A stretch of 64,000 bases of DNA from Dehalococcoidia bacterium (lineage in GTDB: Bacteria > Chloroflexota > Dehalococcoidia > Lucifugimonadales > UBA6952), in contig JAKUQA010000007.1 in NCBI GenBank assembly GCA_022450525.1, positions 1,361-65,360 of the forward strand. The letters run 5' to 3'. This document shows, one piece after another, positions 2,831-63,083 of the stretch (position 1 is the first letter of the stretch; each line of letters starts with the position of its first letter). The translations under genes were made by a program, and so were the position numbers. The notes below the pieces were generated by a model. That model saw nothing but the letters and a program-made list of their open reading frames with translations. It did no database searches and was not told the DNA's origin.

Positions 2831-3478
2831 TTATTTTGAGTTTACAAATGATTTTCTATTTGGATAACATGTTTTACAAATTATGCAAGTATTACCTTTG
2901 CAACCACGAGCTGTACAATATTCCCTCCCAAAATAAATAATTTGTAAATGTAATTTATTCCAAGATTCTTTTGGGAATAGTTTCTTTAGATCTTTTTCAG
3001 TTTGTACCACATTTTTTCCATTTGTTAGTCCCCATCTTTGGGCTAATCTGTGGATATGGGTGTCAACAGGGAAAGCTGGGTGACCAAAACCCTGAGACAT
3101 AACAACACTTGCTGTTTTATGTCCAACCCCAGGTAATGATTCTAACTTTTCAAAATTTTCTGGAACTTTACTGTTATATTTTTCAACTAATATAAGAGAA
3201 AGGTCCCATATAGCTTTGGATTTTTTAGGAGCTAATCCGCACGGTCGTATAATATCGTAAATTTCCTCGACATTTAAAGTTATCATTGCATCGGGTTTAT
3301 TTGCTTTAGAAAAAAGTATAGGAGTTACTTGATTTACCCTTTCATCAGTACATTGGGCACTTAATAACACTGCAATAAGTAGTTCATAATTATTTGAGTG
3401 GGATAGTGGTATAGGTGTATTTGGATATAATTTTTCGAGGTAATTAGAAATGAAAACTACTCTGTCTTTTTTATTCAT
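2831..3478 (-). CDS. nth: Endonuclease III (DNA glycosylase/AP lyase)
   Basis: 215 aa. HhH-GPD signature LPGVGHKTASVVM, plus a C-terminal 4-Cys cluster region (CTARGCKGNTCIICKTC). Confidence 0.9.
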   Translation of the reverse strand: MNKKDRVVFISNYLEKLYPNTPIPLSHSNNYELLIAVLLSAQCTDERVNQVTPILFSKANKPDAMITLNVEEIYDIIRPCGLAPKKSKAIWDLSLILVEKYNSKVPENFEKLESLPGVGHKTASVVMSQGFGHPAFPVDTHIHRLAQRWGLTNGKNVVQTEKDLKKLFPKESWNKLHLQIIYFGREYCTARGCKGNTCIICKTCYPNRKSFVNSK

Positions 3479-3496
3479 AATATATTTTTACTTAAA

Positions 3497-3955
3497 TTAA
3501 GACTTAAAACTAATAATAATATCCCATTCGTCTTTTGTTACAGGTTGTACAGATAATCTTTGATTTTTAAAAAGTACCATATTTTCTAATTCAGGAATTT
3601 GTTTTAGTTCATCAACATGAATAGGAATATCGAATTTTTCTTTAACTTTAATATCAACCATGAACCAACGGGGATTATCTGGAGTACTTTTTTCATCAAA
3701 ATGGATATCATTTTGATCCCAAGATGTATGGTCTGGGTATGCTTCTTTTACAACCGTCACTGTGCCTACTATTATTCTTGGTTTTGAGTTTGAATAATAG
3801 AACAAAAGTTCGTCACCTAATCGCATCTTTTGCATATTATTTCGTGCTTGATAATTTCTCACCCCATCCCATTCGGCAGTTTGATCAGGTTCATTTTCTA
3901 AATCTTCAAATGAGTATGTATTGGGCTCTGATTTTATTAACCAGTAATTTTTCAC
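3497..3955 (-). CDS. EVE (PUA-like) domain protein
   Basis: 152 aa. The N-terminus MKNYWLIKSEPNTYSFEDL and WDGVRNYQARNNM are characteristic of EVE/DUF55 proteins. Confidence 0.65.
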   Translation of the reverse strand: MKNYWLIKSEPNTYSFEDLENEPDQTAEWDGVRNYQARNNMQKMRLGDELLFYYSNSKPRIIVGTVTVVKEAYPDHTSWDQNDIHFDEKSTPDNPRWFMVDIKVKEKFDIPIHVDELKQIPELENMVLFKNQRLSVQPVTKDEWDIIISFKS

Positions 3956-4064: not shown

Positions 4065-5117
4065 ATGTCAATGAAAATAGGAATATTAAATATCACAGGA
4101 TATGGTGGGGTTGAATTAGCAAGATTACTTGCTAATCATCCTGAAGCTGAAATAGTATCTGTAACTGGAAGATCTCTTGCTGGTGAACATATTTCAGATG
4201 TTTTTCCACAATTAGATTATATGGATATTACACTTGAAGATGAATTATCAGGTACAGTAGATGTTGTTTTTTCTGCATTGCCACAAGTTGCAAGTGCAGA
4301 AGCGTGTATGCCATTAATTAATCAAGGCGTTAAAGTGATAGATTTTAGTGCAGATTTTAGATTAAAGGATTCACAAGTTTACAAACAATGGTATGGTGAA
4401 AACCATCCTTCCCCTGAATCATTAAATAATTCAGTTTATGGTTTATCTGAAATAAATAATATTGAGATAAAAAATGCAAACCTAATAGCCAATCCAGGTT
4501 GTTATCCTACAAGTGCATTATTAGGACTTGCACCTTTAGTTTTTGGAGATTTGGTAGACACTGATATAATTATTGATAGCAAATCCGGAGTTTCGGGTGC
4601 GGGTAGAACCCTAAGTTTAGGGACTCACTTTTCAGAAGTTAATGAAAGTGTAAATGCTTATGGTTTAGATGGGCACCGTCATTTGCCCGAAATAGTTCAA
4701 GAAGTAAATGGATTTTATCAAAAAAATAATCTCAACCAATCTTCTAGAATAACTTTTGTACCTCATTTAATTCCTATGACAAGAGGTATTCTGAGTACTG
4801 CTTATCTGAATCCAAAATCAGGTCTCTTAAACTCCCTCGAAAAGGACCCAGATTTGATTTCTGAAATTTATAAAGAATTCTATACAAATTCTAAATTTGT
4901 TAAAGTTGCAAAAAGATCTCCTCAAACGAAGCAAACACTTGGAAATAATGATTGTATAATTTATCCTACTTTTGATAAATATACTGGCAGAGTAGTTGTA
5001 GTTAGTGTTATAGATAATCTAGTTAAAGGTGCTGCTGGTCAAGCCATACAAAATATGAATATTATGTTTGATTTACCTGAAGATACAGGCCTTCAGAATA
5101 TAGCAATGTTCCCTTAA
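4065..5117 (+). CDS. argC: N-acetyl-gamma-glutamyl-phosphate reductase
   Basis: 350 aa. N-terminal Rossmann motif (GILNITGYGGVELARLL) and the catalytic-Cys context NPGCYPTSA. Confidence 0.9.
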   Translation: MSMKIGILNITGYGGVELARLLANHPEAEIVSVTGRSLAGEHISDVFPQLDYMDITLEDELSGTVDVVFSALPQVASAEACMPLINQGVKVIDFSADFRLKDSQVYKQWYGENHPSPESLNNSVYGLSEINNIEIKNANLIANPGCYPTSALLGLAPLVFGDLVDTDIIIDSKSGVSGAGRTLSLGTHFSEVNESVNAYGLDGHRHLPEIVQEVNGFYQKNNLNQSSRITFVPHLIPMTRGILSTAYLNPKSGLLNSLEKDPDLISEIYKEFYTNSKFVKVAKRSPQTKQTLGNNDCIIYPTFDKYTGRVVVVSVIDNLVKGAAGQAIQNMNIMFDLPEDTGLQNIAMFP

Positions 5118-5158
5118 TATTTGCACAGCTTTTTTTAAGGCTGTAAGATATATGCCAT

Positions 5159-5232
5159 GCCCCTATCGTCTAGAGGCCCAGGACACAGCCCTTTCAAGGC
5201 TGAGATCGCGGGTTCGAATCCCGCTGGGGGCA
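5159..5232 (+). tRNA. tRNA-Glu (anticodon TTC)
   Basis: GCCCCTATCGTCTAGAGGCCCAGGACAC...CTTTCAA...GGTTCGAATCCCGCTGGGGGCA. The 7-bp acceptor stem has one G-U pair, the T-loop is GGTTCGAATCC, and the sequence is close to classical bacterial tRNA-Glu. No encoded CCA. Confidence 0.9.
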
Positions 5233-5929: not shown

Positions 5930-6178
5930 TTCACTGCTATGATTGGAAGTAGTAGGGGGAATTAAGGCTAAATAGAGAGCTGACGTTAGCTGAAAGTCAG
6001 TAGCAATAGACCCCGAACTCGTCCATGAGCGGCCAACTTGAAAAATTAATTGATTAGAGTTGGGGGTGAGCTCCTGAACATAGCTCACAAAGAGTCTATT
6101 TCATAGGAATAGGAATTAGGGTGGTAACGCGGGAAAATTTGTCTCGTCCCTTATAGGGGGCGGGATTTTTTATTTTTA
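5930..6178 (+). promoter_or_regulatory. T-box leader (tRNA-sensing riboswitch), probable Leu specifier CUC
   Basis: The conserved T-box sequence AATTAGGGTGGTAACGCGGG lies at 6114..6133. Stem I elements are AGAGAG (5974..5979) and distal-loop-like GCTGAAAG (5989..5996). The specifier-loop geometry is AGUAGUA + GGGGG (5955..5959) pairing with CCCC (6011..6014), followed by GAA-CUC-G, with CUC at 6018..6020. An intrinsic terminator lies directly before ilvB. Confidence 0.8.
6142..6176 (+). terminator. T-box attenuator (intrinsic terminator)
   Basis: A stem of about 9 bp, TCTCGTCCC / GGGGCGGGA (includes G-U pairs), with loop TTATAG, followed by TTTTTTATTTTT. It lies 25 nt upstream of the ilvB ATG. 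Confidence 0.65.
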
Positions 6179-6200: not shown

Positions 6201-7895
6201 ATGAAGCTTACGGGCGCTCAGATGGTATGTGAGAGTCTAATTCGCGAGGGTGTTGATACAATGTTTGGCATACCTGGAGGTGCAATTTTACCTTTGTACC
6301 AAACTTTTCATCAGTATCCTCAATTAAAACATATACTTGTTCGTCATGAGCAAGGAGCTGCAATGGCTGCAGATGGATATTATCGAGTAACCGGCAAGGT
6401 TGGAGTTGCAATGGCAACTTCTGGTCCTGGAGCAACCAATTTGGTGACTGGTTTAGCAACTGCTCAAATGGACTCGACTGCTATAGTTGCAATTACTGGG
6501 CAAGTATCCAGAGGTGCTATTGGTAAAGATGCTTTTCAAGAATGTGATATTACAGGTGTAACATTACCTGTAACTAAACACAATTATTTAGTTATGGATA
6601 TACACGATATACCTCGTGTAATAAAAGAAGCTTTCTACCTAGCTAAATCTGGCCGTCCTGGGCCAGTATTAGTTGATATTCCTAAAGATTTATTTACTGA
6701 AGAAGCTGAATTTATATATCCTGAAACAGTAGAAATTCCTGGATATAACCCTACTCTAGAAGGAAATATGTCTCAAATCAAAAAGGCAGCTTCCTTGATT
6801 AATTCAGCAAAAAAACCTGTTATTTTATCAGGGCATGGTGCTGTTTTATCACGTGCATTTGATGAAGTTAAAGACTTGGCAGAAAGAGCTCAAATACCTG
6901 TTATCACAACTTTGCTTGGTATAAGTTCATTTCCAGAAACCCACGTACTTAGTTTAGGCATGCCTGGAATGCATGGTGTTGCTTATGCCAGTATGGCCTT
7001 AGATCAAGCCGATCTAATTGTTAGTTTAGGTGCTAGATTTGATGATCGTGTAACTGGTAAACTCAGTTCTTTTGCCCCAAACGCTAAGATCATTCACATT
7101 GATATAGACCCTTCAGTTATAGGGCAAAATGTTAGAACACAAGTTCCATTAGTGGGTGATGTCAAAAGCGTTTTACAGACTCTTATTCCGCAAGTTAAGC
7201 AAAATAATCATGAAGACTGGGTACAGCATATTGAGGAAATGAGAATCAATCATCCTTCTCTTCGATTAAAAGAAAAAGATAATTTAACACAACAATATAT
7301 AATCAAGAAGATTTCAGATATAACACAGGGTGGTGCAGTTGTTGTAACAGGGGTTGGTCAACATCAAATGTGGACTGCTCAATATTATACTTTCTCACAA
7401 CCAAATTCATGGGTAACCTCAGGCGGACTGGGTACTATGGGGTTTGAAGTTCCTGCAGCGATGGGTGCTCAGGTTGGTAAACCCGATTCAGTAGTATGGT
7501 CTATTTGTGGTGATGGCGGTTTCCAAATGACTTTAAGTGATCTTGCAACTATTGTTGAAAATAAATTACCAATTAAATTTGCGATTATGAATAATCATTT
7601 CCTAGGAATGGTTAGACAATGGCAACATTTATTCTACGAAGATACATTTACAGCAACTCAATATTCAGGTAATCCTGATTTTGTTAAATTAGCAGAAGCA
7701 TATGGAATACATTCTTTTAGAGTGACTGAAAAATCCGAAGTTGATAACGCAATAACTGATGCTATGGAACACGATGGACCAGTATTAATAGATTTTATGG
7801 TGGATCCTGAAGAAAATGTATATCCTATGATTCCACCTGGAGAAAGTGTTCTAGAGATTGTAGAAGAACCTACGGAGGAACCAACGTGGCGATAG
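6201..7895 (+). CDS. ilvB: Acetolactate synthase large subunit
   Basis: 564 aa. ThDP-enzyme motifs (GIPGGAILPLY, GDGGFQM, MNNHFLGMVRQWQ). GGAGG RBS upstream. Confidence 0.93.
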   Translation: MKLTGAQMVCESLIREGVDTMFGIPGGAILPLYQTFHQYPQLKHILVRHEQGAAMAADGYYRVTGKVGVAMATSGPGATNLVTGLATAQMDSTAIVAITGQVSRGAIGKDAFQECDITGVTLPVTKHNYLVMDIHDIPRVIKEAFYLAKSGRPGPVLVDIPKDLFTEEAEFIYPETVEIPGYNPTLEGNMSQIKKAASLINSAKKPVILSGHGAVLSRAFDEVKDLAERAQIPVITTLLGISSFPETHVLSLGMPGMHGVAYASMALDQADLIVSLGARFDDRVTGKLSSFAPNAKIIHIDIDPSVIGQNVRTQVPLVGDVKSVLQTLIPQVKQNNHEDWVQHIEEMRINHPSLRLKEKDNLTQQYIIKKISDITQGGAVVVTGVGQHQMWTAQYYTFSQPNSWVTSGGLGTMGFEVPAAMGAQVGKPDSVVWSICGDGGFQMTLSDLATIVENKLPIKFAIMNNHFLGMVRQWQHLFYEDTFTATQYSGNPDFVKLAEAYGIHSFRVTEKSEVDNAITDAMEHDGPVLIDFMVDPEENVYPMIPPGESVLEIVEEPTEEPTWR

Positions 7896-8452
7896 GTGAG
7901 CATACTTTAGTTGCATTAGTATTACATCAACCAGGTGTTCTTAACCGAATATCAGGGATGTTTAGACGAAGAGGGTTTAATATTTCTAGCCTAACTGTAG
8001 GACAAAGTGAGTCAGAGGATTTAGCTCGTATGACTTTTGTTGTTCAAGGAGATGATGCAACTGTTGAACAAGTTACAAAGCAATTATATAAACTTGTTGA
8101 TGTCGTTCGTGTTACAGATTTAGATGAAGATAACTCTATTGTTCGAGAAATGGCTCTTGTTAAGGTTTCTGCTACTAATCAGAATAGATCTGAAATTATA
8201 CAGATAAGTGAAATATTTAGATCGAAAATTGTGGATGTAGGGGCAGAAACAGTTGTAATTGAAATTACTGGAGATCAGTCAAAGATTGATAGGTTTATTA
8301 TTTTATTACAACCTTTTGGAATCAGAGAAGTTATGCGTACAGGTGCAGTTGCTATGTCAAGAGGTAATGCTGTAACTGCTCAAATTGACAATAATGTTTC
8401 TGGTGCTTCAAGAGTCAATAATCGTCCAAAAGATTATGATCAAAATTTATAA
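7886..8452 (+). CDS. ilvN: Acetolactate synthase small (regulatory) subunit
   Basis: 188 aa. ACT domain start HTLVALVLHQPGVLNRISGMFRRRGFNISSLTVG. The GTG start overlaps the ilvB stop. Confidence 0.9.
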   Translation: MAIGEHTLVALVLHQPGVLNRISGMFRRRGFNISSLTVGQSESEDLARMTFVVQGDDATVEQVTKQLYKLVDVVRVTDLDEDNSIVREMALVKVSATNQNRSEIIQISEIFRSKIVDVGAETVVIEITGDQSKIDRFIILLQPFGIREVMRTGAVAMSRGNAVTAQIDNNVSGASRVNNRPKDYDQNL

Positions 8453-8476
8453 AAAATAGAATTAGAGGTGTATTAG

Positions 8477-9478
8477 ATGGCGGCAAAGGTATATTACGAT
8501 AAAGATGCGGATAGTTCTTATATTGCAGACAAAACTGTTGCAATAATTGGGTATGGTAGCCAAGGGCATGCTCATGCTTTAAACATGAAAGATAATGGCG
8601 TAAAAGTTATTATTGGTTTGTATGAAGGAAGTTCAAGTTGGTCTAAAGCTGAATCTGACGGTTTTGAAGTAATGACGACCTCAGAAGCTACAAAAAATGC
8701 TGATATCATAATGATGCTCCTACCTGATACGAGTCAAGCAGAGGTGTTTAAAAATGAAGTAGAGCCAAATCTAACTTCAGGTAAAAGTATTGCTTTTGCC
8801 CACGGCTTTACAATTCATTATCAAACAATTGTTCCTAATTCAAACATTGATGTTTGGATGATAGCTCCGAAAGCTCCTGGACATAGAGTTAGGGCAGTTT
8901 TTCAACAAGGTAATGGTGTACCTTCTCTAATTGCTGTACATCAGGACTATACTGGTAATGCGCAAAATATAGCACTCGCTTATGCACAGGCTATTGGTTC
9001 TATGAGAGCTGGTGTTTTAGAAACTACATTTAAAGAAGAAACAGAAACTGACTTGTTTGGTGAGCAGGCTGTTTTATGCGGTGGAGTTACTTCACTAGTT
9101 CAATCTGCATATGAAACCATGGTTGAGGCAGGATATCAACCTGAGTCAGCATATTTTGAAGTTATGCACGAATTGAAATTAATAGTAGATCTTCTTTACG
9201 AAGGTGGAATGGAGTATATGTGGTATTCAGTCAGTGATACTGCTGAGTATGGTGGACTTACTAGAGGACCAAGAGTAGTTGATGAATCAGTAAAAGAGAA
9301 TATGAAAAAAGTCATGGAAGAAATACAGAATGGAACTTTTGCCAGAGAATGGATTACTGAAAATGACGAAGGTAGACCAACTTTTCATAGAACAAGAAAA
9401 GAAAATGCCAGCCATCCGATTGAGTCCATTGGTAAAGATTTAAGAGGCATGATGCCTTGGCTAAAAGATACTGTTTAA
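8477..9478 (+). CDS. ilvC: Ketol-acid reductoisomerase (class I)
   Basis: 333 aa. [21 protein letters not shown] and [11 protein letters not shown]. Confidence 0.93.
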
Positions 9479-9511
9479 TTTAATTAAGCAAGGTAGATTA
9501 GGGGAGATATT

Positions 9512-11032
9512 ATGACAGATAAAGTGTTGATATTAGATACAACTCTACGTGATGGTGAACAAGCTGCTGGTGCGGCTATGACAATTGATGAAAAGTATGA
9601 AGTTGCACAACAACTTGACCGTCTGGGTGTAGATATTATTGAAGCAGGATTTCCCATGAGTTCTCCAGGAGACTTTGCGGCAGTGAAGAAAATTGCCGAC
9701 GAAATAAGACGACCAATTATAGCAGCGTTGTCACATGCAAATAATAAAGCTGTTGATAGAACATGGGAAGCAATTAAAGGAGCAGCCCATCCAAGAATTC
9801 ATATATTCTTATCAAGCTCAGATATTCATATAGCTCATCAATTGAAAAAGAACCGTGAAGAAGTTCTAGCAATGGCAGTTGATAATGTAGCTCGTGCTAA
9901 AAGTTATTGTGACGACGTTGAATTCTCTCCTATGGATGCAACTCGAACTGACCCAGAGTATTTATTTGGTATGCTAGAAGCATGTATCAATGCAGGTGCA
10001 ACAACCTTGAATATTCCAGATACTGTTGGTTATGCCGATCCAAGAGAGTTTGCAAGATTACTTGTCGACATTCAGGAAAAAGTTCCAAACATAGATAAGG
10101 CAAACATTAGTGTTCATTGCCACAATGATTTAGGTATGGCAGTTGCAAATAGTTTGGCAGCTGTAAAGGTAGGTGCTCGTCAAGTCGAAGGATGTATTAA
10201 TGGTATTGGAGAAAGAGCAGGAAATGCAGCTCTTGAAGAAGTTATTATGGCTCTCCATACTCGTAAAGACTATTATCAAGTCGATTTAAATATAGACCCG
10301 ACACAAATCTATAGGTCAAGTAGATTGGTTAGTGATATAACAGGATTTGCTATTCAACCTAATAAGGCTGTTACTGGTGGTAATGCATTTCGTCACGCTT
10401 CTGGTATACACCAAGACGGATTACTTAAGGATAGAACAACTTATGAAATTATGGATCCACAAATGGTTGGATGGCCAAGTAGTGAATTAGTTCTAGGTAA
10501 ACTTAGTGGAAGGCATGGTTTAAAATCTAGACTAAATGAATTAGGATATGAACCTTCAGATGCCGAATTAAATAGACTCTTTGAAGAATTTAAAGTGTTA
10601 GCTGATAAAAAGAGAGAAGTAACTGATAGAGACCTAGAAGCATTAATGAAGGATCAAAGAAGAAGTTTTGATGAAACTTTTACTCTAGATCAAATTCAAG
10701 TCACATGTGGAGATCAAGGAATTCCAACCGCAACAATTACTGTTACTGGCCCTGATGGGACTTCTAAGACGGATGCTGCAACAGGAACTGGTCCGGTTGA
10801 TGCTGTTTATCAAGCTATTAACAGAGTAATAAATGTAGATAATGAACTTACTGAATTCAGCGTTAAGTCAGTTACCGAAGGTATCGATGCGGTGGGAGAA
10901 GTAGTCATAAGAATTGTTAGTGAAGAGGCAGAATATGTTGGGCGAGGCGCTGATACTGATATAATCGTTGCATCTGCCAAAGCATATATGAATGCTCTAA
11001 ATCGTTTATTAAGTATTGGTGTAGTAAATTAA
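9512..11032 (+). CDS. leuA: 2-isopropylmalate synthase
   Basis: 506 aa. [23 protein letters not shown], and a C-terminal LeuA dimerisation/regulatory domain. Confidence 0.93.
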
Positions 11033-11069
11033 TAAGAATTCTTGTATCGATAATTCAAGAGAGGGAATC

Positions 11070-12476
11070 ATGGGGAAAACATTATTTGATAAAATTTGGG
11101 ATGAACATGTAGTTGTTCAAGATATTGATAAACCATCATTGTTATATATTGATTTGCATTTAATTCATGAAGTAACATCACCACAAGCATTTGATGGTCT
11201 TCGAGATACTAATCGAAAAGTTAGAAGACCAGAACTTACTATTGCCACTGTAGATCATAATGTACCTACTAAAGACAGACATTTGCCAATAGCAGATCAA
11301 ATTTCAAGAACGCAAATTGAGTATTTAGATAGAAATGTTAAAGAATTTGGTATTACCTATTATGGAATGAATAGTGCAGGTCAAGGGATTGTTCACGTCA
11401 TCGGACCAGAACAAGGCTACACACAACCAGGTAAAACAATTGTCTGTGGGGATAGTCATACATCCACCCATGGTGCTTTTGGGGCACTAGCATTTGGTAT
11501 AGGTACTTCTGAAGTAGAACATGTACTAGCTACACAATGTCTGCGACAAAGTAAACCCAAAACAATGGAAGTTAGAGTAGATGGGACATTACCTTTTGGG
11601 GTTACAGCTAAGGATATAATCTTAGGAGTAATTGGACAAATTGGTGTTGATGGTGCTGTAGGGCATGTTATTGAATACACAGGTGAAGCTATCCGCTCTT
11701 TATCTATGGAAGGTAGAATGACTGTATGTAATATGTCCATCGAGGCGGGCGGCCGAGCAGGAATGATTGCCCCAGATGAAACTACATATGAATATCTAAA
11801 AGGGCGACCTCACTGTCCTAAAGGCAGAAATTTTGATAAGGCTATAGAAAAATGGGATCAATATAAAAGTGATCCTGATGCTGAATACGATAAAGTGGTA
11901 ATAATCAATGCTGAAGATTTAGCTCCTTTTGTTACTTGGGGAACTAATCCAGGAATGGTTGCAAAAATAACAGATTCTGTGCCTAATCCTGATTCTTTTG
12001 AATTAGAAAGCCAACAGTTAGCTGGACAGAAAGCCTTAGAATATATGCAATTAAATGCAGGAACCCCGATAACTGACATACCATTAGACAGGGTTTTTAT
12101 TGGATCATGTACTAATTCTCGGATCGAAGATTTACGAGCAGCAGCAGAAGTCGTTAAAGGTTATAAAGTTAGCGAAACAGTTAATGCTATGGTAGTTCCT
12201 GGGTCATTTAAAGTTAAGGAAAAAGCCGAAAAAGAGGGATTGGATAGAATTTTTAAAGAATCAGGATTTGAATGGCGTGATGCCGGATGTTCCATGTGTT
12301 TGGGAATGAACCCTGATATTTTATCTCCTGGAGAACGATGTGCTTCCACTTCAAATAGGAATTTTGAAGGTAGGCAAGGTCCAGGTGGACTTACGCATTT
12401 AGTGAGCCCGCAAATGGCCGCAGCCGCAGCAATACAAGGTACTTTTGTTGATATCAGAGATTGGTCTTTTAGATAA
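11070..12476 (+). CDS. leuC: 3-isopropylmalate dehydratase large subunit
   Basis: 468 aa. Aconitase-family motifs ([29 protein letters not shown]). Confidence 0.93.
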
Positions 12477-12496
12477 TATAATTAAGGAAAATAATT

Positions 12497-13090
12497 ATGG
12501 AAAAATATAATAAAACAAATGGCAAAGTTCTTCCTTTAGATAGAGCAAATGTTGATACTGACCAAATCATACCAGCGAAGTATCTAAAAAGAGTAGAAAG
12601 GACTGGATTTGGGCAATATTTATTTGACGCCTGGAGGAAATTACCTGACGGTACACCGAATCCAGAGTTTATTCTTAATGATGATCGTTATAACGGGGCA
12701 ACTATTTTAGTTGCTGGTCCTAATTTTGGTAGTGGATCATCACGAGAACATGCACCTTGGGCTTTGAATGATTATGGCTTTAGAACTATTATAGCCCCAA
12801 GTTTTGCAGATATTTTTAGAAATAACTGCTTTCAAAATGGAATGCTGCCGATCGTTTTAGATCAGGCAATTATAGATAAAATTATTGAAAAGTCTTCTAA
12901 AAACCCAGACTACTCTTTAACTGTTGATCTTGAATCAGGAGTCATTAGTGATTCAGAAGAATTAACAATTGAATTTACAATTGATTCTTTTAAAAAACAT
13001 TGTTTACTCGAAGGTTTAGATGATATTGGTTTGACTTTGTCTGAAGAATCAATGATCAAAAACTTTGAATCGAGACACGTAATAAGTTAG
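12497..13090 (+). CDS. leuD: 3-isopropylmalate dehydratase small subunit
   Basis: 197 aa. [15 protein letters not shown] swivel-domain motif. Confidence 0.93.
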
Positions 13091-16683: not shown

Positions 16684-18190
<1,507 letters not shown>

Positions 18191-23941: not shown

Positions 23942-24426
23942 TAATTTTTTATAATTGCATTTACTGCAGATTGTATATTCTTTAAAATTTTATCATGAAT
24001 GGTGCCTTTAGATAAAAATTTAAACACCCTTGAGACATCATCGACTATTTCTATATCTATAATAATATATGCTTGTGGCAACATGTCTATAAATTTATCA
24101 GGCCATTCTATAATACAAAGTGTATCTTCTCTAATTAGTTCAAGTATTCCGATATCATAAAAATCGATTTCATCTTCAATACGATAAAGATCAACGTGGT
24201 ATATAAGAAGTTCTGATCGATATTCATGAGCTATTACAAACGTGGGACTTTTCACTTTTATAGAAGAATCAATCTCTTTAACGATTGACTGAGTAAGGGT
24301 AGTTTTGCCTGTACCCAAGTCACCTTTCAAAAGTAGTAAAGAATCTTTTGTTACAAATTGAGCTATTGCTTGGCCTAGTAATTGTGTTTGTTTCTCTGAT
24401 GTGGAAATATAGCTAAAATTACTCAT
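23941..24426 (-). CDS. tsaE: tRNA t6A37 threonylcarbamoyltransferase complex ATPase subunit
   Basis: 161 aa. Walker A GDLGTGKTT, SPTF, HVDLYR. Confidence 0.85.
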   Translation of the reverse strand: MSNFSYISTSEKQTQLLGQAIAQFVTKDSLLLLKGDLGTGKTTLTQSIVKEIDSSIKVKSPTFVIAHEYRSELLIYHVDLYRIEDEIDFYDIGILELIREDTLCIIEWPDKFIDMLPQAYIIIDIEIVDDVSRVFKFLSKGTIHDKILKNIQSAVNAIIKN

Positions 24427-25433
24427 TATTTAAAGTGATCCCATCCATTATATTGATTTACTTTGTACGCTTTACCATCTTTTATCAATTCTATGACTCC
24501 TGATTCACCAGAACAAGCTTTTCCAATAATATGAGAATCAGGTAATAAGGATTTTACTTTGTCAATTTTATCAGATGAAATGCCAAATAAAATCTCATAG
24601 TCTTCTCCTCCATTAGTTACCATTTCAAAATCTAAATTAGGAAAGACTTTAGAAATCTCTGGATGAATAGGAATACAAGAGGAATTAATAGTGGCACTAA
24701 TTTGGCTAGCAATAAGCATTTTATTAAGATCACTAAATAAGCCATCACTTATATCCATGGCACATGTAGAACCCAATTCTTTTAATATTTTACCTTCATT
24801 TATTTTAGGTTGTGGCCTGAAATGAGCATTGTAAAACAGTTGCGTATTATATTCTGTTAGATTTGGCAATTCATCTTGTGATTTGGATAACTCCAATCCT
24901 GCTTTTGACAATCCAGTCAATCCAGTTATTCCAATCAAATCTTCATCTTTAAGTAAGGAGCGTTGCAGAGTAGGATTTTGGCAAATACCGTACATGGCAA
25001 CCGTTATAAAAAGCATTGGGGATTTTACAATATCTCCGCCAACAATTTTGGTATTATAAGTTGATGCGCATTCTATTATACCTTGATAAAGAGATTTTAA
25101 GTCCTGTAATTCCATTTCTCCAGGCAATCCTAAAGTTATTAAAGCCGTTGTGGGAGTACCACCCATAGATGCTATATCGCTTAGATTTGTTGCAACAGAT
25201 TTCCATCCAATGTCCATTAAATTAGATTTGCCAATTTCAAAATGAACGTTATCAACCATTGTGTCGGTAGTTGCTAATTGTAAACCTGATTGGGTTTGCC
25301 AAGCTGCAGTATCATCACCTACATCAATTTCTACACCTATAGTTTCACTAAGATAATTTTGTACTGCATCATTAGAAAGAGTATTAGAGATGTATTCAAT
25401 AATATTAAATTCACCAAAATTGTTTATTTTCAT
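24426..25433 (-). CDS. thiL: Thiamine-monophosphate kinase
   Basis: 335 aa. AIR-synthase-like fold motifs (GDDTAAW, TTDTMVDNVHF, DISDG). Confidence 0.85.
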   Translation of the reverse strand: MKINNFGEFNIIEYISNTLSNDAVQNYLSETIGVEIDVGDDTAAWQTQSGLQLATTDTMVDNVHFEIGKSNLMDIGWKSVATNLSDIASMGGTPTTALITLGLPGEMELQDLKSLYQGIIECASTYNTKIVGGDIVKSPMLFITVAMYGICQNPTLQRSLLKDEDLIGITGLTGLSKAGLELSKSQDELPNLTEYNTQLFYNAHFRPQPKINEGKILKELGSTCAMDISDGLFSDLNKMLIASQISATINSSCIPIHPEISKVFPNLDFEMVTNGGEDYEILFGISSDKIDKVKSLLPDSHIIGKACSGESGVIELIKDGKAYKVNQYNGWDHFK

Positions 25434-30630: not shown

Positions 30631-30900
30631 ATAGTCGTGCTAGATGGGGAGTTAGCGGTGCCCTGTACCCGCAATCCGCTACAGCGGGATTGATTACTTC
30701 CTGAGGCATTAATGAATATATCCAATGTTAGTTATTTGATGTTGATGTTCTGACTCTGAGCGGCAAGATTATATGAATTCCGTCAGGTCTGGAAGGAAGC
30801 AGCGGTAAATATGAAATTGGGTGCCTTAGATTAATCGGAGTAGAGTTGGATAATTAATACGTTATATAAATGATTGTCGAAGGAAGTTGCACGGCTTTAT
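30631..30900 (+). ncRNA. ffs: Signal recognition particle RNA, large Bacillus-type (with Alu domain)
   Basis: GTCGTGCTAGATGGGGAGTTAGCGGTGCCCTGTACCCGCAATCCGCT closely parallels the 5' Alu domain of B. subtilis scRNA. The domain IV core GTCAGGTCTGGAAGGAAGCAGCGG lies at about 30782..30805. The 3' end ..GAAGGAAGTTGCACGG pairs back to 5' TCGTGC. The ends are approximate (+/-5 nt). Confidence 0.85.
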
Positions 30901-60947: not shown

Positions 60948-61973
60948 TTGACTAATTCTACTCCTAATCTAAACTATGGCTCAATTTTATTTCTTGGTTC
61001 TGGTGAGACAGCATCAGCTGGACGTATATTACATGAGCAACTATTTCAAAAGCTTTCCAAGAAAAAAATAAATGTTGCAATATTGGAAACTCCGGCTGGT
61101 TTTGAACCCAATTCTGAACAAGTAGCCTCAGAAGTTTCTGATTTCTTCACAGAAAAACTCCAAAATTACCACCCTGATGTAAAAATTATCCCTGCTAGAA
61201 GACGTGATGGTAATTTTAGTACAAATTCTGAAGAAATAATTAGTGATATCAAATCTGCAGACCACATATATTTAGGTGCTGGAAGCCCAACATACTTAGT
61301 AAAACATTTAGAAGATACACTTGCTCTAGAGGCGCTTCATAATCAACACAAAAAAGGTTCGTCGATCTGTCTGACTAGTGCTTCTTCTATTGCTTTTGGG
61401 AAATGGACTCTACCAGTTTATGAAATATTCAAAGTCGGTTTGGATTTATACTGGCAAGATGGGTTAGATTTTTTTTCCAGATTTAATCTTGATTTATCTG
61501 TTATCCCTCATTGGAATAATAATGACGGTGGAAAAAAAATTGATACTAGCAGATGTTATTTAGGTAAAGAGAGGGTCGATAAACTTTTAAAAATGCTTCC
61601 AGATGAATCTGTTGTTTTAGGGCTAGATGAACACACAGGTTTGCTCTTAGACTTTTCCCATAAAGCTGTTAGTGTTGTGGGTAAAGGTTCTGTGCATCTC
61701 ATACAAGGTGGTTATGAAAAAATATATACCAACGGTGACGAATTCAAATTTGAAGATTTAGGAGATTTTACAATGCCTGAAGATGATCTCTCCTTATTAA
61801 ACAATTCAATACTCGAAGAAATTCCAAGAAATATTATTGAATTAGCAGAAAAGAGATTACAGTCAAGAAAAAATAAAGAATGGGATGAAGCCGATAGACT
61901 AAGGTCTAAAGTTTCTGAACTCGGTTATCAGATAGAAGATAATAATGATGGTTACAGTGTATCAAAATTATGA
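60948..61973 (+). CDS. Peptidase-S51 (PepE/cyanophycinase)-like domain fused to a CysRS-type C-terminal tail
   Basis: 341 aa. ADHIYLGAGSPTYLVKHL...ICLTSASSIAFG...VIPHW parallels PepE's IVIVGGGNTFQLL...YIGWSAGANLA...INPHF. The last ~47 aa, NIIELAEKRLQSRKNKEWDEADRLRSKVSELGYQIEDNNDGYSVSKL, parallel the E. coli CysRS C-terminus [47 protein letters not shown]. TTG start. Its stop overlaps the next ATG (ATGA). Confidence 0.6.
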   Translation: MTNSTPNLNYGSILFLGSGETASAGRILHEQLFQKLSKKKINVAILETPAGFEPNSEQVASEVSDFFTEKLQNYHPDVKIIPARRRDGNFSTNSEEIISDIKSADHIYLGAGSPTYLVKHLEDTLALEALHNQHKKGSSICLTSASSIAFGKWTLPVYEIFKVGLDLYWQDGLDFFSRFNLDLSVIPHWNNNDGGKKIDTSRCYLGKERVDKLLKMLPDESVVLGLDEHTGLLLDFSHKAVSVVGKGSVHLIQGGYEKIYTNGDEFKFEDLGDFTMPEDDLSLLNNSILEEIPRNIIELAEKRLQSRKNKEWDEADRLRSKVSELGYQIEDNNDGYSVSKL

Positions 61974-62497
61974 GATATATATATAAAATGTGGTATTTAT
62001 TTAATGGATTTTCATTTCTATGGGTATTAACTTTAGCTATATTGTTTTTTGGCGTGATTTTTTATAAATATATACCTCGCCCACAATTTGTAATCTTATT
62101 TACAGTATTAATTGGTAGTGTCTTTATTCTTTCACAATTTCTATATGCATCACGACAAACAGCTGGTATAAATTCTTATGAAAATGCTATTGATGAGATA
62201 CAAACCAAAGAATTTAACCTGGTATTTTTATACTCCAATTACTGAATTGGTTGCAAAACTGCAAAGCCGATCGTGGATCAGCTAGAAAAAGAATTAAAAA
62301 ATGAAATTAATGTAATTAGACTCGATGTTATGACTGAAGCAGGACGAGATTTCAGAGAAGAATTCTCTGTTCGTGTCACACCTGGATTTGTTTTAGTTAA
62401 TGATGAAAATAAAGAGTTATGGCAGTTTATTGGAATACCAAATTCCAAAACGTTCATAGAGAAAATCAAAAAAACAATAAAGGATACAAATGTATAA
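61970..62497 (+). CDS. Membrane-anchored thioredoxin-fold selenoprotein candidate (UxxC; in-frame TGA at 62243..62245 read as Sec)
   Basis: Track ORFs 61970..62245 and 62273..62497 are in the same frame and are separated only by one TGA. The joined 175-aa product has 2 TM helices, then ...LVFLYSNY-U-IGCKTAKPIVDQLEKEL...RVTPGFVLV...FIEKIKK. This is the Trx layout, with TGA at the first-Cys position of CxxC. Confidence 0.7.
62246..62285 (+). promoter_or_regulatory. Candidate SECIS region downstream of the first UGA
   Basis: Hairpin GGUUGC(A)-loop-(U)GCAA^AG^CC at 62249..62268, and mini-hairpin GAUC-GUG-GAUC at 62269..62279 (loop G 28 nt after the UGA). Both are conserved in the paralog. Not folded computationally. 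Confidence 0.35.
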
Positions 62498-63083
62498 ATT
62501 AAATTCTATATTTCCATCGAGCAAAATAACAATAGTTGTTCTTCTATTAACTACTATGATAACTATTCTTGGTTGTGGAGATTCTTCTACCGATACCACA
62601 TCAGATAAATCCGAATATGATATTAACTACGAAAACAAAGATTTGTCTGTAAAATCCATTACTGAAGATGCTAGTAGTAGCAATATTAATATAGCTCCAT
62701 TAGATTCCACTCCTAAGGTTCAAGACACAATTAATACTAATGAGCAAACAATCTCTCTGGAATCTGATAACTATTCAAAACAACTCGAAATAATAGAAAT
62801 TGATACAGACAACAAATTAAGTTTAGTTTTTCTATATTCAGACTACTGAATTGGTTGCACTAAAGCAAAACCGATCGTTGATCAGTTAGAGAATGAATTA
62901 AATCCTGAGATTGAAATCAAAAGGGTTGATATTCTTACTGAATTTGGTAATGAATTTAGTAACGAATACTCTATAAGTACACCAGGGTTTATATTACTAA
63001 ATAACTCAAACGAAGAATTATTGCGGTTTAGAGGGGTACCTAATAAGACGCAATTCGTTGAACGTTTAAAGGAATATATCTAA
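62490..63083 (+). CDS. Thioredoxin-fold lipoprotein selenoprotein candidate (UxxC; in-frame TGA at 62847..62849 read as Sec)
   Basis: The track ORF 62490..62849 ends ...LVFLYSDY at TGA. The same frame continues for 77 sense codons (IGCTKAKPIVDQLENELNPEIEIKRVDILTEFGNEFSNEYSISTPGFILLNNSNEELLRFRGVPNKTQFVERLKEYI) to TAA at 63081..63083. The N-terminus has a signal peptide with lipobox ILGC and a polar linker. The ATG overlaps the upstream stop. Confidence 0.7.
62850..62889 (+). promoter_or_regulatory. Candidate SECIS region downstream of the second UGA
   Basis: GGUUGC-ACUAAA-GCAA^AA^CC at 62853..62872, and GAUC-GUU-GAUC at 62873..62883. The architecture matches the first copy. Confidence 0.35.

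Follow-up and report, generated by a model that had tools for sequence, protein, structure and literature searches.

Thioredoxin-fold lipoproteins found at the surface of Gram-positive bacteria, such as the ResA/StoA-type proteins and pneumococcal Etrx1 and Etrx2, share a layout in which a signal peptide with a lipobox is followed by a linker and by a thioredoxin-fold domain located outside the cell. These proteins belong to the TlpA/ResA-like type and not to the classical thioredoxin type, their genes usually lie close to that of a CcdA electron donor, and they are not known to use anything but Cys. Among prokaryotic selenoproteins, Trx (PF00085), with selenocysteine (Sec, U) in a UxxC motif, is an experimentally verified family, and several exported UxxC families have been predicted, namely PF13098 thiol:disulfide interchange proteins, cd02966 isomerase-like proteins, Prx-like oxidoreductases and DsbA/DsbG-like proteins (PMC13188914, Table 1). 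The selenoprotein reviews consulted make no mention of Chloroflexota members or of a membrane-tethered subfamily of the kind described below (PMC13188914). Here we describe two adjacent genes, hereafter gene A and gene B, located in a 64,000-nucleotide stretch from a Dehalococcoidia bacterium (assembly GCA_022450525.1, contig JAKUQA010000007.1; the whole stretch is referred to as the window). Each gene is interrupted by an in-frame TGA, and we conclude that the two are very probably paralogous selenoprotein genes in which UGA is read as Sec within the redox centre of a thioredoxin fold. As such they fit the known UxxC thioredoxin-fold selenoproteins, a reading that is well supported and should not surprise specialists.

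Two thioredoxin-fold genes with in-frame TGA codons

The open reading frames (ORFs) at 61970-62245 and 62490-62849 end in LVFLYSNY and LVFLYSDY, respectively, and both terminate at a TGA followed by ATT GGT TGC, a shared stop context already recognized in the initial annotation of this locus. Past the TGA, the frame of gene A stays open for 83 codons until TAA 62495-62497, and that of gene B for 77 codons until TAA 63081-63083. The GC content of the window is 34.5%, a composition at which about 7% of random codons are stops, and the probability of each open stretch arising by chance was calculated from this composition as about 0.002-0.003. The second stretch had been described as devoid of a start codon; it holds no start giving an ORF of at least 30 amino acids (aa), but one late in-frame TTG does exist. 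As anticipated, the ORF listed at 62273-62497 is nothing else than the tail of the gene A frame, and its apparent GTG start (62273-62275) is the loop of the RNA hairpin described below, a putative Sec insertion sequence (SECIS). The features of the two genes are as follows.

61970-62497, + strand: gene A, thioredoxin-fold protein with two predicted N-terminal transmembrane (TM) helices, 175 codons counting the Sec codon
62012-62149, + strand: predicted membrane anchor of gene A, TM1 at about 62012-62071 and TM2 at about 62081-62149, linked by a short loop with K/R residues (AlphaFold2 helices, charge distribution in the family)
62177-62488, + strand: thioredoxin domain of gene A, alpha0-beta1-(U-x-x-C)alpha1-beta2-alpha2-beta3-beta4-alpha3 (Pfam, AlphaFold2, PDB matches)
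62243-62245, + strand: TGA, putative Sec codon of gene A, first position of U-I-G-C
62252-62254, + strand: TGC, putative resolving Cys of gene A
62266-62282, + strand: putative SECIS hairpin of gene A, GCCGAUC-GUG-GAUCAGC with one C·A mismatch (minimum free energy fold, covariation)
62381-62383, + strand: CCT, cis-Pro codon of gene A
62490-63083, + strand: gene B, lipoprotein-type thioredoxin-fold protein, 197 codons counting the Sec codon
62490-62576, + strand: predicted signal peptide of gene B with lipobox I-L-G-C, Cys codon at 62574-62576 (sequence inspection)
after 62576 to about 62800, + strand: polar linker of gene B, rich in S/T/D/N, about 75 residues
62802-63080, + strand: thioredoxin domain of gene B, 52% identical to that of gene A
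62847-62849, + strand: TGA, putative Sec codon of gene B
62856-62858, + strand: TGC, putative resolving Cys of gene B
62870-62886, + strand: putative SECIS hairpin of gene B, ACCGAUC-GUU-GAUCAGU, loop at 62877-62879, 27 nt past the UGA

When the parts on either side of the TGA are joined, both products match PF00085 across the TGA, with 38.7 bits for gene A (E 1.1e-9) and 28.9 bits for gene B (E 1.2e-6) against a gathering cut-off of 23.5. An alternative gene A start, ATG 61988, would better fit the N-termini of homologues (M..NQYSF), and the gene B orthologue P0004 is recorded as one read-through protein of 198 aa. The AlphaFold2 (AF2) model of P0001, the read-through form of the gene A family, computed from a family alignment, has a predicted local distance difference test score (pLDDT) of 88.9 and comprises helices at residues 9-28 and 32-54, then alpha0, beta1 (76-82), alpha1 (87-102), beta2, alpha2, beta3, beta4 and alpha3. 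In this model beta1 precedes the TGA column, residue 86 (Sec) caps alpha1, and Pro132, the cis-Pro before beta3, is invariant in the family. The best PDB matches are classical thioredoxins, with TM-scores of 0.8-0.88 on the target and rmsd of 1.6-2 Å. Taken together, the Pfam match, the model and the PDB matches bear out the proposed thioredoxin-fold layout, in which the TGA coincides with the nucleophilic Cys.

TGA otherwise behaves as a stop in this genome. ORFs of at least 120 aa in the window end with TAA (47), TAG (11) or TGA (7), and several conserved proteins stop at TGA exactly where their profiles do: residues 5-606 of the 607 of LepA align to positions 2-595 of a 595-position profile, GalU covers positions 1-260 of 261, and SufU positions 1-136 of 137. 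A scan of every TGA of the 64 kb with an open frame on both sides returned no credible in-frame case besides genes A and B. Hence the genetic code is standard and the two TGAs are special; that TGA is otherwise a stop had been noted in the initial annotation from lepA and galU, among others. A YHS-domain gene lying just outside the window encodes an ordinary Cys protein.

Both TGAs are retained in all of the 10 marine metagenome assemblies examined (10/10), in which the 1.1-kb region differs at 0-2 positions. These assemblies are independent and come from different projects; they were found through exact copies of the neighbouring 341-aa protein, which occurs on many marine contigs. The host is an abundant marine Dehalococcoidia of the SAR202 type, whose closest named genome is the metagenome-assembled genome (MAG) LRMED-149 (85.5% DNA identity). 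Three related species-level lineages (L011, L017 and L018; 83-86% DNA identity) have retained the two genes in tandem, each with its TGA, and comparison of the window with them gives, after the TGA, a ratio of nonsynonymous to synonymous substitutions (dN/dS) of 0.10-0.18 at dS 0.5-0.9, similar to or below that of the upstream part. In view of this purifying selection, the sequence downstream of the TGA appears to be translated.

The Sec/Cys column and the hairpin downstream of the TGA

Searched exhaustively by phmmer with P0001 as query, a set of 1.84 billion representatives yielded 288 relatives. The core of the family consists of single continuous proteins of about 160 aa, with an N-Q-Y-S-F N-terminal motif, two hydrophobic helices and a thioredoxin domain with the redox motif [YF]-S-x-[YF]-(C or 'W')-x-[GA]-C. 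The two parts are therefore not normally separate genes, an arrangement that would have spoken against the recoding hypothesis. Full-length members carry either C or 'W' at the column aligned with the TGA, and 'W' corresponds to TGA in all cases checked at the DNA level (P0002/L011, P0005/L012-14 and P0009/L016), gene callers having applied code 4 to short contigs. About 23 of the 150 best representatives are orphan fragments of about 75 aa that begin right after the column (e.g., MGCLTAKPIVD...), which shows that the same mis-annotation runs across the family; in P0054/L015, the sole fragment checked, the in-frame upstream ORF ends in TGA.

A scan of species-representative genomes (one genome per species), with an alignment of seven sequences as query, yielded 24 loci in genomes of 29-67% GC. 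The column is TGA in 20 of them and TGC (Cys) in the other four, which on sequence grounds is a classic Sec/Cys signature, and across both searches the aligned codon in homologues is thus Cys (TGC/TGT) or TGA, as the Sec hypothesis had it. Purifying selection, a TGA kept in 20 species and continuous Cys homologues together uphold the view that the two genes contain Sec and are not decaying. All 24 loci belong to Chloroflexota (Dehalococcoidia/SAR202 and Anaerolineae) except one in a MAG labelled Bacillota. The latter (L040), whose label may stem from gene transfer or from an error in binning, carries two adjacent Sec forms, with TGA at 4322-4324 and 4794-4796; a Dehalococcoidia MAG (L039) likewise carries two adjacent forms, both Cys, at 9695 and 10025. 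Three members have Ser at the Sec column. In P0014 (L045, 705-1022) the Ser codon is TCA, one base from TGA, and a full SECIS-type hairpin is retained (-6.8 kcal/mol), which looks like a recent Sec-to-Ser change; the two others are P0023 and P0032. No neighbouring gene is common to the family among the 26 loci compared, and neighbourhoods vary between clades.

Each TGA of the window is followed by a small hairpin, at 62266-62282 and 62870-62886. In gene A the loop GUG (62273-62275) lies 27 nt past the UGA, as does the loop of gene B, and the stem codons encode K-P-I-V-D-Q-L; the closing pair is A-U in gene B versus G-C in gene A. The constraints defined for bacterial SECIS elements (bSECIS) are a loop of 3-9 nt that starts with G followed by G or U, a stem of 4 bp or more, a spacing of 16-37 nt and a minimum free energy (MFE) of the region of at most -7.5 kcal/mol (PMC13188914, Fig. 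2 legend). Both hairpins fall within these limits, with a 3-nt loop starting G-U, 4 bp plus two further pairs, a spacing of 27 nt and an MFE over the 63-nt region of -9.7 (gene A) and -8.1 kcal/mol (gene B). Compared with the consensus bacterial SECIS model, the hairpin is very small, is AT-poor only in the stem and, in this lineage, contains a C·A mismatch. Its sequence is specific to the gene A/B family because it encodes K-P-x-V-D-[RQG].

Comparative analysis of 30 TGA genes, in a gap-free alignment that runs from 12 nt upstream to 60 nt downstream of the TGA, places the family hairpin at columns 36-52, with the consensus GCCUAUC-GUG-GAUAGGC (codons K-P-I-V-D-R-L). It is 84.7% paired, with compensatory pairs at 36-52 (GC 16, AU 8), 39-49 (UA 18, GC 9, CG 1) and 40-48 (AU 17, GC 11). 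None of 500 shuffled controls matched the observed covariation or pairing, and sliding the 3' partners by 1-3 columns lowers pairing to 22-43%. In 28 of 29 distinct sequences, including those from genomes of 57-67% GC, the last position of the Pro codon is matched by a complementary base at the start of the R/Q/G codon (CCU with AGG, CCG with CAG or CGG, CCC with GGG). From GC content, CCU and AGG would not usually be favoured in such genomes. The hairpin is absent from the seven Cys forms, whose local MFE ranges from 0 to -3.8 kcal/mol (mean about -1), versus a mean of -7.3 kcal/mol in the Sec forms. In the present genome, the codons forming the hairpins are rare (CCG, 5% of Pro; ATC, 13% of Ile; GTG, 9% of Val; CAG, 18% of Gln), and they are kept in all eight copies of the lineage. 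The SECIS check proposed for this region thus turned up, in both genes, a structure with covariation support over 30 genes, and the family offers a clear case in which an RNA signal constrains a protein motif and vice versa. It also provides a simple detection rule: TGA-N6-TGY, then a hairpin pairing CCN with the NGG (or CAG) codon located four codons on.

Another hairpin, immediately after the UGA (AUUGGUUGC...GCAA..CCGAU in the window, UGCC..GGCA in relatives), is not claimed as part of the SECIS: it is broken by synonymous changes in gene B of L011, and its 80% pairing in the family comes mostly from Cys (UGC) and Ala (GCN) codons that are fixed. The small hairpin at 62252-62263 (columns 22-33 of alignment A4; UGCA-AAAC-UGCA in gene A, UGCC-NNNN-GGCA in relatives), located after the UGA and ahead of the SECIS, consists of Cys and Ala codons. 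It is 80% paired in the family, displays one covarying pair and may be functional or a by-product of the codons. Rfam returned nothing meaningful at the locus, a match to SECIS_5 (E = 4.3, 17.7 bits versus 50) being attributable to chance. Read on the minus strand (62887-62869), the gene B hairpin is the only terminator-like match of the region.

Sec machinery and alternative readings

Several observations weigh against reading the two TGAs as Sec codons of exported proteins. Neither selA, selB, selD nor tRNA-Sec was found in the 64-kb window, in its flanks of about 10 kb or in related loci of the lineage. A metagenome scan for the AT-biased SGDKLLGGPQAG pattern did not return the SelA of this lineage among the matches listed, which come mostly from gut Clostridia. 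The gene A and B hairpins taken alone (-6.0 and -3.6 kcal/mol), with their C·A mismatch, are the weakest in the family, and coding constraints, together with the relatedness of the sequences, partly confound the covariation. Evidence for placing the domains outside the cell is confined to the positive-inside rule and to the match with a lipobox pattern, and no CcdA/DsbD-type electron donor is encoded nearby, either within 6 kb on each side of the 26 loci or in the Pfam listings of the window.

With regard to the machinery, the failure to recover the SelA of the lineage is uninformative, and we give it no weight against Sec. Searches by tblastn of the window, flanks and related loci with SelA, SelB and SelD of Escherichia coli found only ThiL and LepA, and a database search with E. 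coli SelA reached enterobacteria alone. The only AIRS-domain gene of the window and flanks (24426-25433), considered as a candidate SelD, was rejected since it corresponds to ThiL. Among the matches listed in the SelA scan, two marine AT-rich lineages were present, Verrucomicrobiales and a rare organism, neither of which is the lineage studied here. The rare organism is represented by a marine contig of 36% GC with a selA-selB operon (L054, 44-3309), a by-product of that scan; another marine contig (L078) carries tRNA-SeC (3544-3636) and a partial selA, and a nearly identical SelA lies on L113, which is labelled Verrucomicrobiales in GenBank.

ARAGORN, applied to the window and the 26 loci, detected tRNA-SeC in L036 only. 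In this Anaerolineae MAG, a Sec-form member of the family (TGA 3929-3931) lies about 1 kb from the tRNA-SeC gene (5100-5196, minus strand); the same member directly follows a double-thioredoxin gene (3057-3773). Few genomes hold as many selenoprotein genes as those of marine Dehalococcoidia: UBA1141 and a second Dehalococcoidia MAG stand in the top ten bacteria of BSepDB, the two having 49 and 46 such genes, and BSepDB entries come from species possessing the Sec pathway (PMC13326102). The MAGs UBA1123 and UBA1152, whose UBA numbers are near UBA1141, carry Sec forms of the gene A/B family. The tRNA-SeC of L036 and the counts for Dehalococcoidia lend indirect support to the existence of Sec machinery in this group, and we infer that Sec is inserted in the organism studied here.

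Public databases tell another story. There, the pieces are separate entries of 74-119 aa (MCH2522671.1, MCH2522672.1, MBA66436.1 and MQG84552.1), none of them flagged as a selenoprotein, with the labels 'hypothetical protein' (Dehalococcoidia bacterium) or 'thioredoxin family protein' (SAR202 cluster bacterium). Gene callers and GenBank thereby treat the TGAs as true stops: MCH2522671.1 and MCH2522672.1 are each a 'hypothetical protein', and an 83-aa 'thioredoxin family protein' is listed besides. Read this way, the locus would encode short membrane or secreted peptides of 91 and 119 aa and a separate 74-aa protein from gene A, or else two decaying pseudogenes, and the absence of Sec machinery from the window and flanks would be expected. 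However, the thioredoxin fold would then be severed between beta1 and alpha1, the downstream part of gene B would lack a usable start, and that of gene A would start in the loop of a hairpin. Given also the strong purifying selection downstream, the continuity of the Cys homologues and the conservation of the TGA in 20 species, we hold true termination to be highly improbable. If it is set aside, public records have broken up two genes of a marine bacterium that is abundant worldwide, leaving three fragments without meaning. Sequencing or assembly error, with TGC or TGT as the true codon of ordinary CxxC thioredoxins, has in its favour only that a single base separates these codons from TGA; the identity of the TGA at both sites in 10 independent assemblies, and its presence in divergent strains and 20 species, make this so improbable as to be negligible and answer a doubt raised at the outset.

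A slightly less remote alternative, though still an improbable one, is that the UGA is read through without Sec: as Trp or Gly through a suppressor tRNA or one that has been reassigned, as Cys delivered by SelB, or by leaky termination. Delivery of Cys by SelB on a tRNA-Cys resembling tRNA-Sec has been reported for a few bacteria. Code-4 gene callers did give W at this position (P0001, P0002 and P0005), and Sec machinery was not found in the window, flanks or related loci. Against this alternative stand the termination of LepA, GalU and SufU at TGA and the confinement of in-frame TGAs to a redox column that is Cys in homologues, at which Trp or Gly would abolish the active site. The TGA is also accompanied by a structured element, at canonical SECIS spacing, that Cys forms have lost, and a tRNA-Sec gene adjoins one member (L036). 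As for SelB-delivered Cys, it is indistinguishable from Sec by sequence alone. Insertion of Sec in both genes thus stands as the reading that we favour.

Predicted topology, proposed function and genomic context

The initial annotation suggested membrane-associated and possibly extracytoplasmic products, which the AF2 helices, the charge distribution and the lipobox support by inference. Over 36 members of the family, the mean number of Lys and Arg residues is 2.4 in the loop between TM1 and TM2, 0.2 in the N-terminus and 1.2 in the 15 residues after TM2, a segment that is net negative and holds more acidic residues. According to the positive-inside rule, the loop would be cytoplasmic and the thioredoxin domain of gene A is predicted to be outside the cell (N-out/C-out). 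Gene B has no two-TM anchor. Its MYKLNSIFPSSKITIVVLLLTTMITILGC fits by inspection the lipobox pattern [LVI][ASTVIL][GAS]C, and the lipobox is kept in the orthologue P0004; given the signal peptide with lipobox I-L-G-C and the polar linker, the gene B domain is predicted to be lipid-tethered, also outside the cell.

Under the standard bacterial mechanism, the internal UGA of each mRNA would be decoded as Sec by SelB and Sec-tRNA(Sec), SelB being recruited by the small SECIS hairpin, which starts 20 nt past the UGA, presents its 3-nt loop (GUG or GUU) at 27 nt and would be written into the codons of the conserved peptide K-P-I-V-D-Q. Each product would then adopt a thioredoxin fold with a U-I-G-C centre at the N-terminus of alpha1. 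By analogy with thioredoxins, and in line with the fold and motif, Sec would replace the nucleophilic Cys and attack a substrate disulfide as a selenolate, and the Cys located three residues on would resolve the mixed intermediate. The gene A domain would be tethered by its N-terminal hairpin of two TM helices, and the gene B domain by the lipid-modified Cys that follows the signal peptide and then a long polar linker, so that both would lie at the outer face of the cytoplasmic membrane. In that position, the products would serve as selenol/thiol-disulfide oxidoreductases, with exported proteins or external disulfides as their substrates.

Genes A and B share with Sec-thioredoxin (PF00085) the fold, Sec as first residue of UxxC at the start of alpha1, a resolving Cys and a conserved cis-Pro. 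They differ from it by the family motif [YF]-U-[IVL]-[GA]-C, which replaces W-C/U-G-P-C, by a two-TM anchor or lipoprotein signal and a predicted location outside the cell, and by a distribution seen only in Chloroflexota and the one MAG labelled Bacillota. Since their scores against the TrxA equivalog TIGR01068 (34.0 and 24.3 bits for A and B) are far below the cut-off of 96.8 and their motif is Y-U-I-G-C rather than W-C-G-P-C, the two genes are not TrxA orthologues. Among curated NCBIfam selenoprotein families (seleno_* and others), none scored above cut-off, with 15.7 versus 185 bits for PDO_seleno_TRX and 20-21 versus 805 bits for TsoB. The predicted exported UxxC families resemble genes A and B in combining export or membrane tethering with UxxC and a likely extracytoplasmic redox role, but the best domain of genes A and B is PF00085, Thioredoxin_2 (PF13098) reaching only 19.6 and 21.5 bits versus 27; the joined products have no Pfam match to AhpC/TSA, Redoxin or DsbA domains. 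As for surface lipoproteins of the ResA/StoA/Etrx type, the layout of gene B (lipobox, linker, thioredoxin domain) and the side-by-side paralogues are similar, whereas genes A and B, unlike the CcdA/DsbD-dependent ResA/TlpA/CcmG systems, have neither a TlpA/Redoxin-type domain nor a CcdA/DsbD neighbour.

We tentatively advance a broader proposal, which is possible but considerably less secure than Sec insertion itself: genes A and B may belong to an undescribed selenoprotein family, namely exported, membrane-tethered 'selenothioredoxins' spread throughout Chloroflexota, mostly in Sec form (20/24), with the SECIS hard-wired in K-P-x-V-D-R and the tandem pair forming an external selenol redox relay. 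If this holds, a TM-anchored and a lipid-anchored partner could, in oxygenated seawater, reduce external disulfides or repair exported proteins that have become oxidized. Provided that the predicted location is correct, SAR202-type bacteria would invest selenium in cell-surface redox chemistry in oxic seawater, and such external selenium redox would bear on the high selenoprotein counts of marine Dehalococcoidia (PMC13326102).

The end of gene A and the start of gene B overlap by 8 nt, and the gene upstream of the pair is in the same orientation:

60948-61973, + strand: upstream gene encoding the 341-aa protein, context only, its TGA stop overlapping the ATG of gene A (ATGA)

On account of these two overlaps, the three genes are probably co-transcribed as one operon. 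The 341-aa protein itself is an odd fusion, its N-terminal part being cyanophycinase/peptidase-S51-like (TIGR02069, 2.5e-11, below cut-off) and its last 47 or so aa being similar to the very C-terminal end of Cys-tRNA ligase (TIGR00435, positions 418-464 of 466, E 0.0026); no Pfam match is recorded for it. Elsewhere in the window, a complete 16S rRNA gene (16687-18189, minus strand) is present with neither 23S nor 5S in the 64 kb, hence the rRNA genes appear to be unlinked. A T-box leader (5930-6154, plus strand; 127.5 bits) lies upstream of a branched-chain amino-acid cluster (6201-13090) that encodes both the large and small subunits of acetolactate synthase, ketol-acid reductoisomerase, a LeuA-like protein and aconitase-type LeuC/LeuD. 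Finally, a large-type signal recognition particle RNA is found at 30635-30894.

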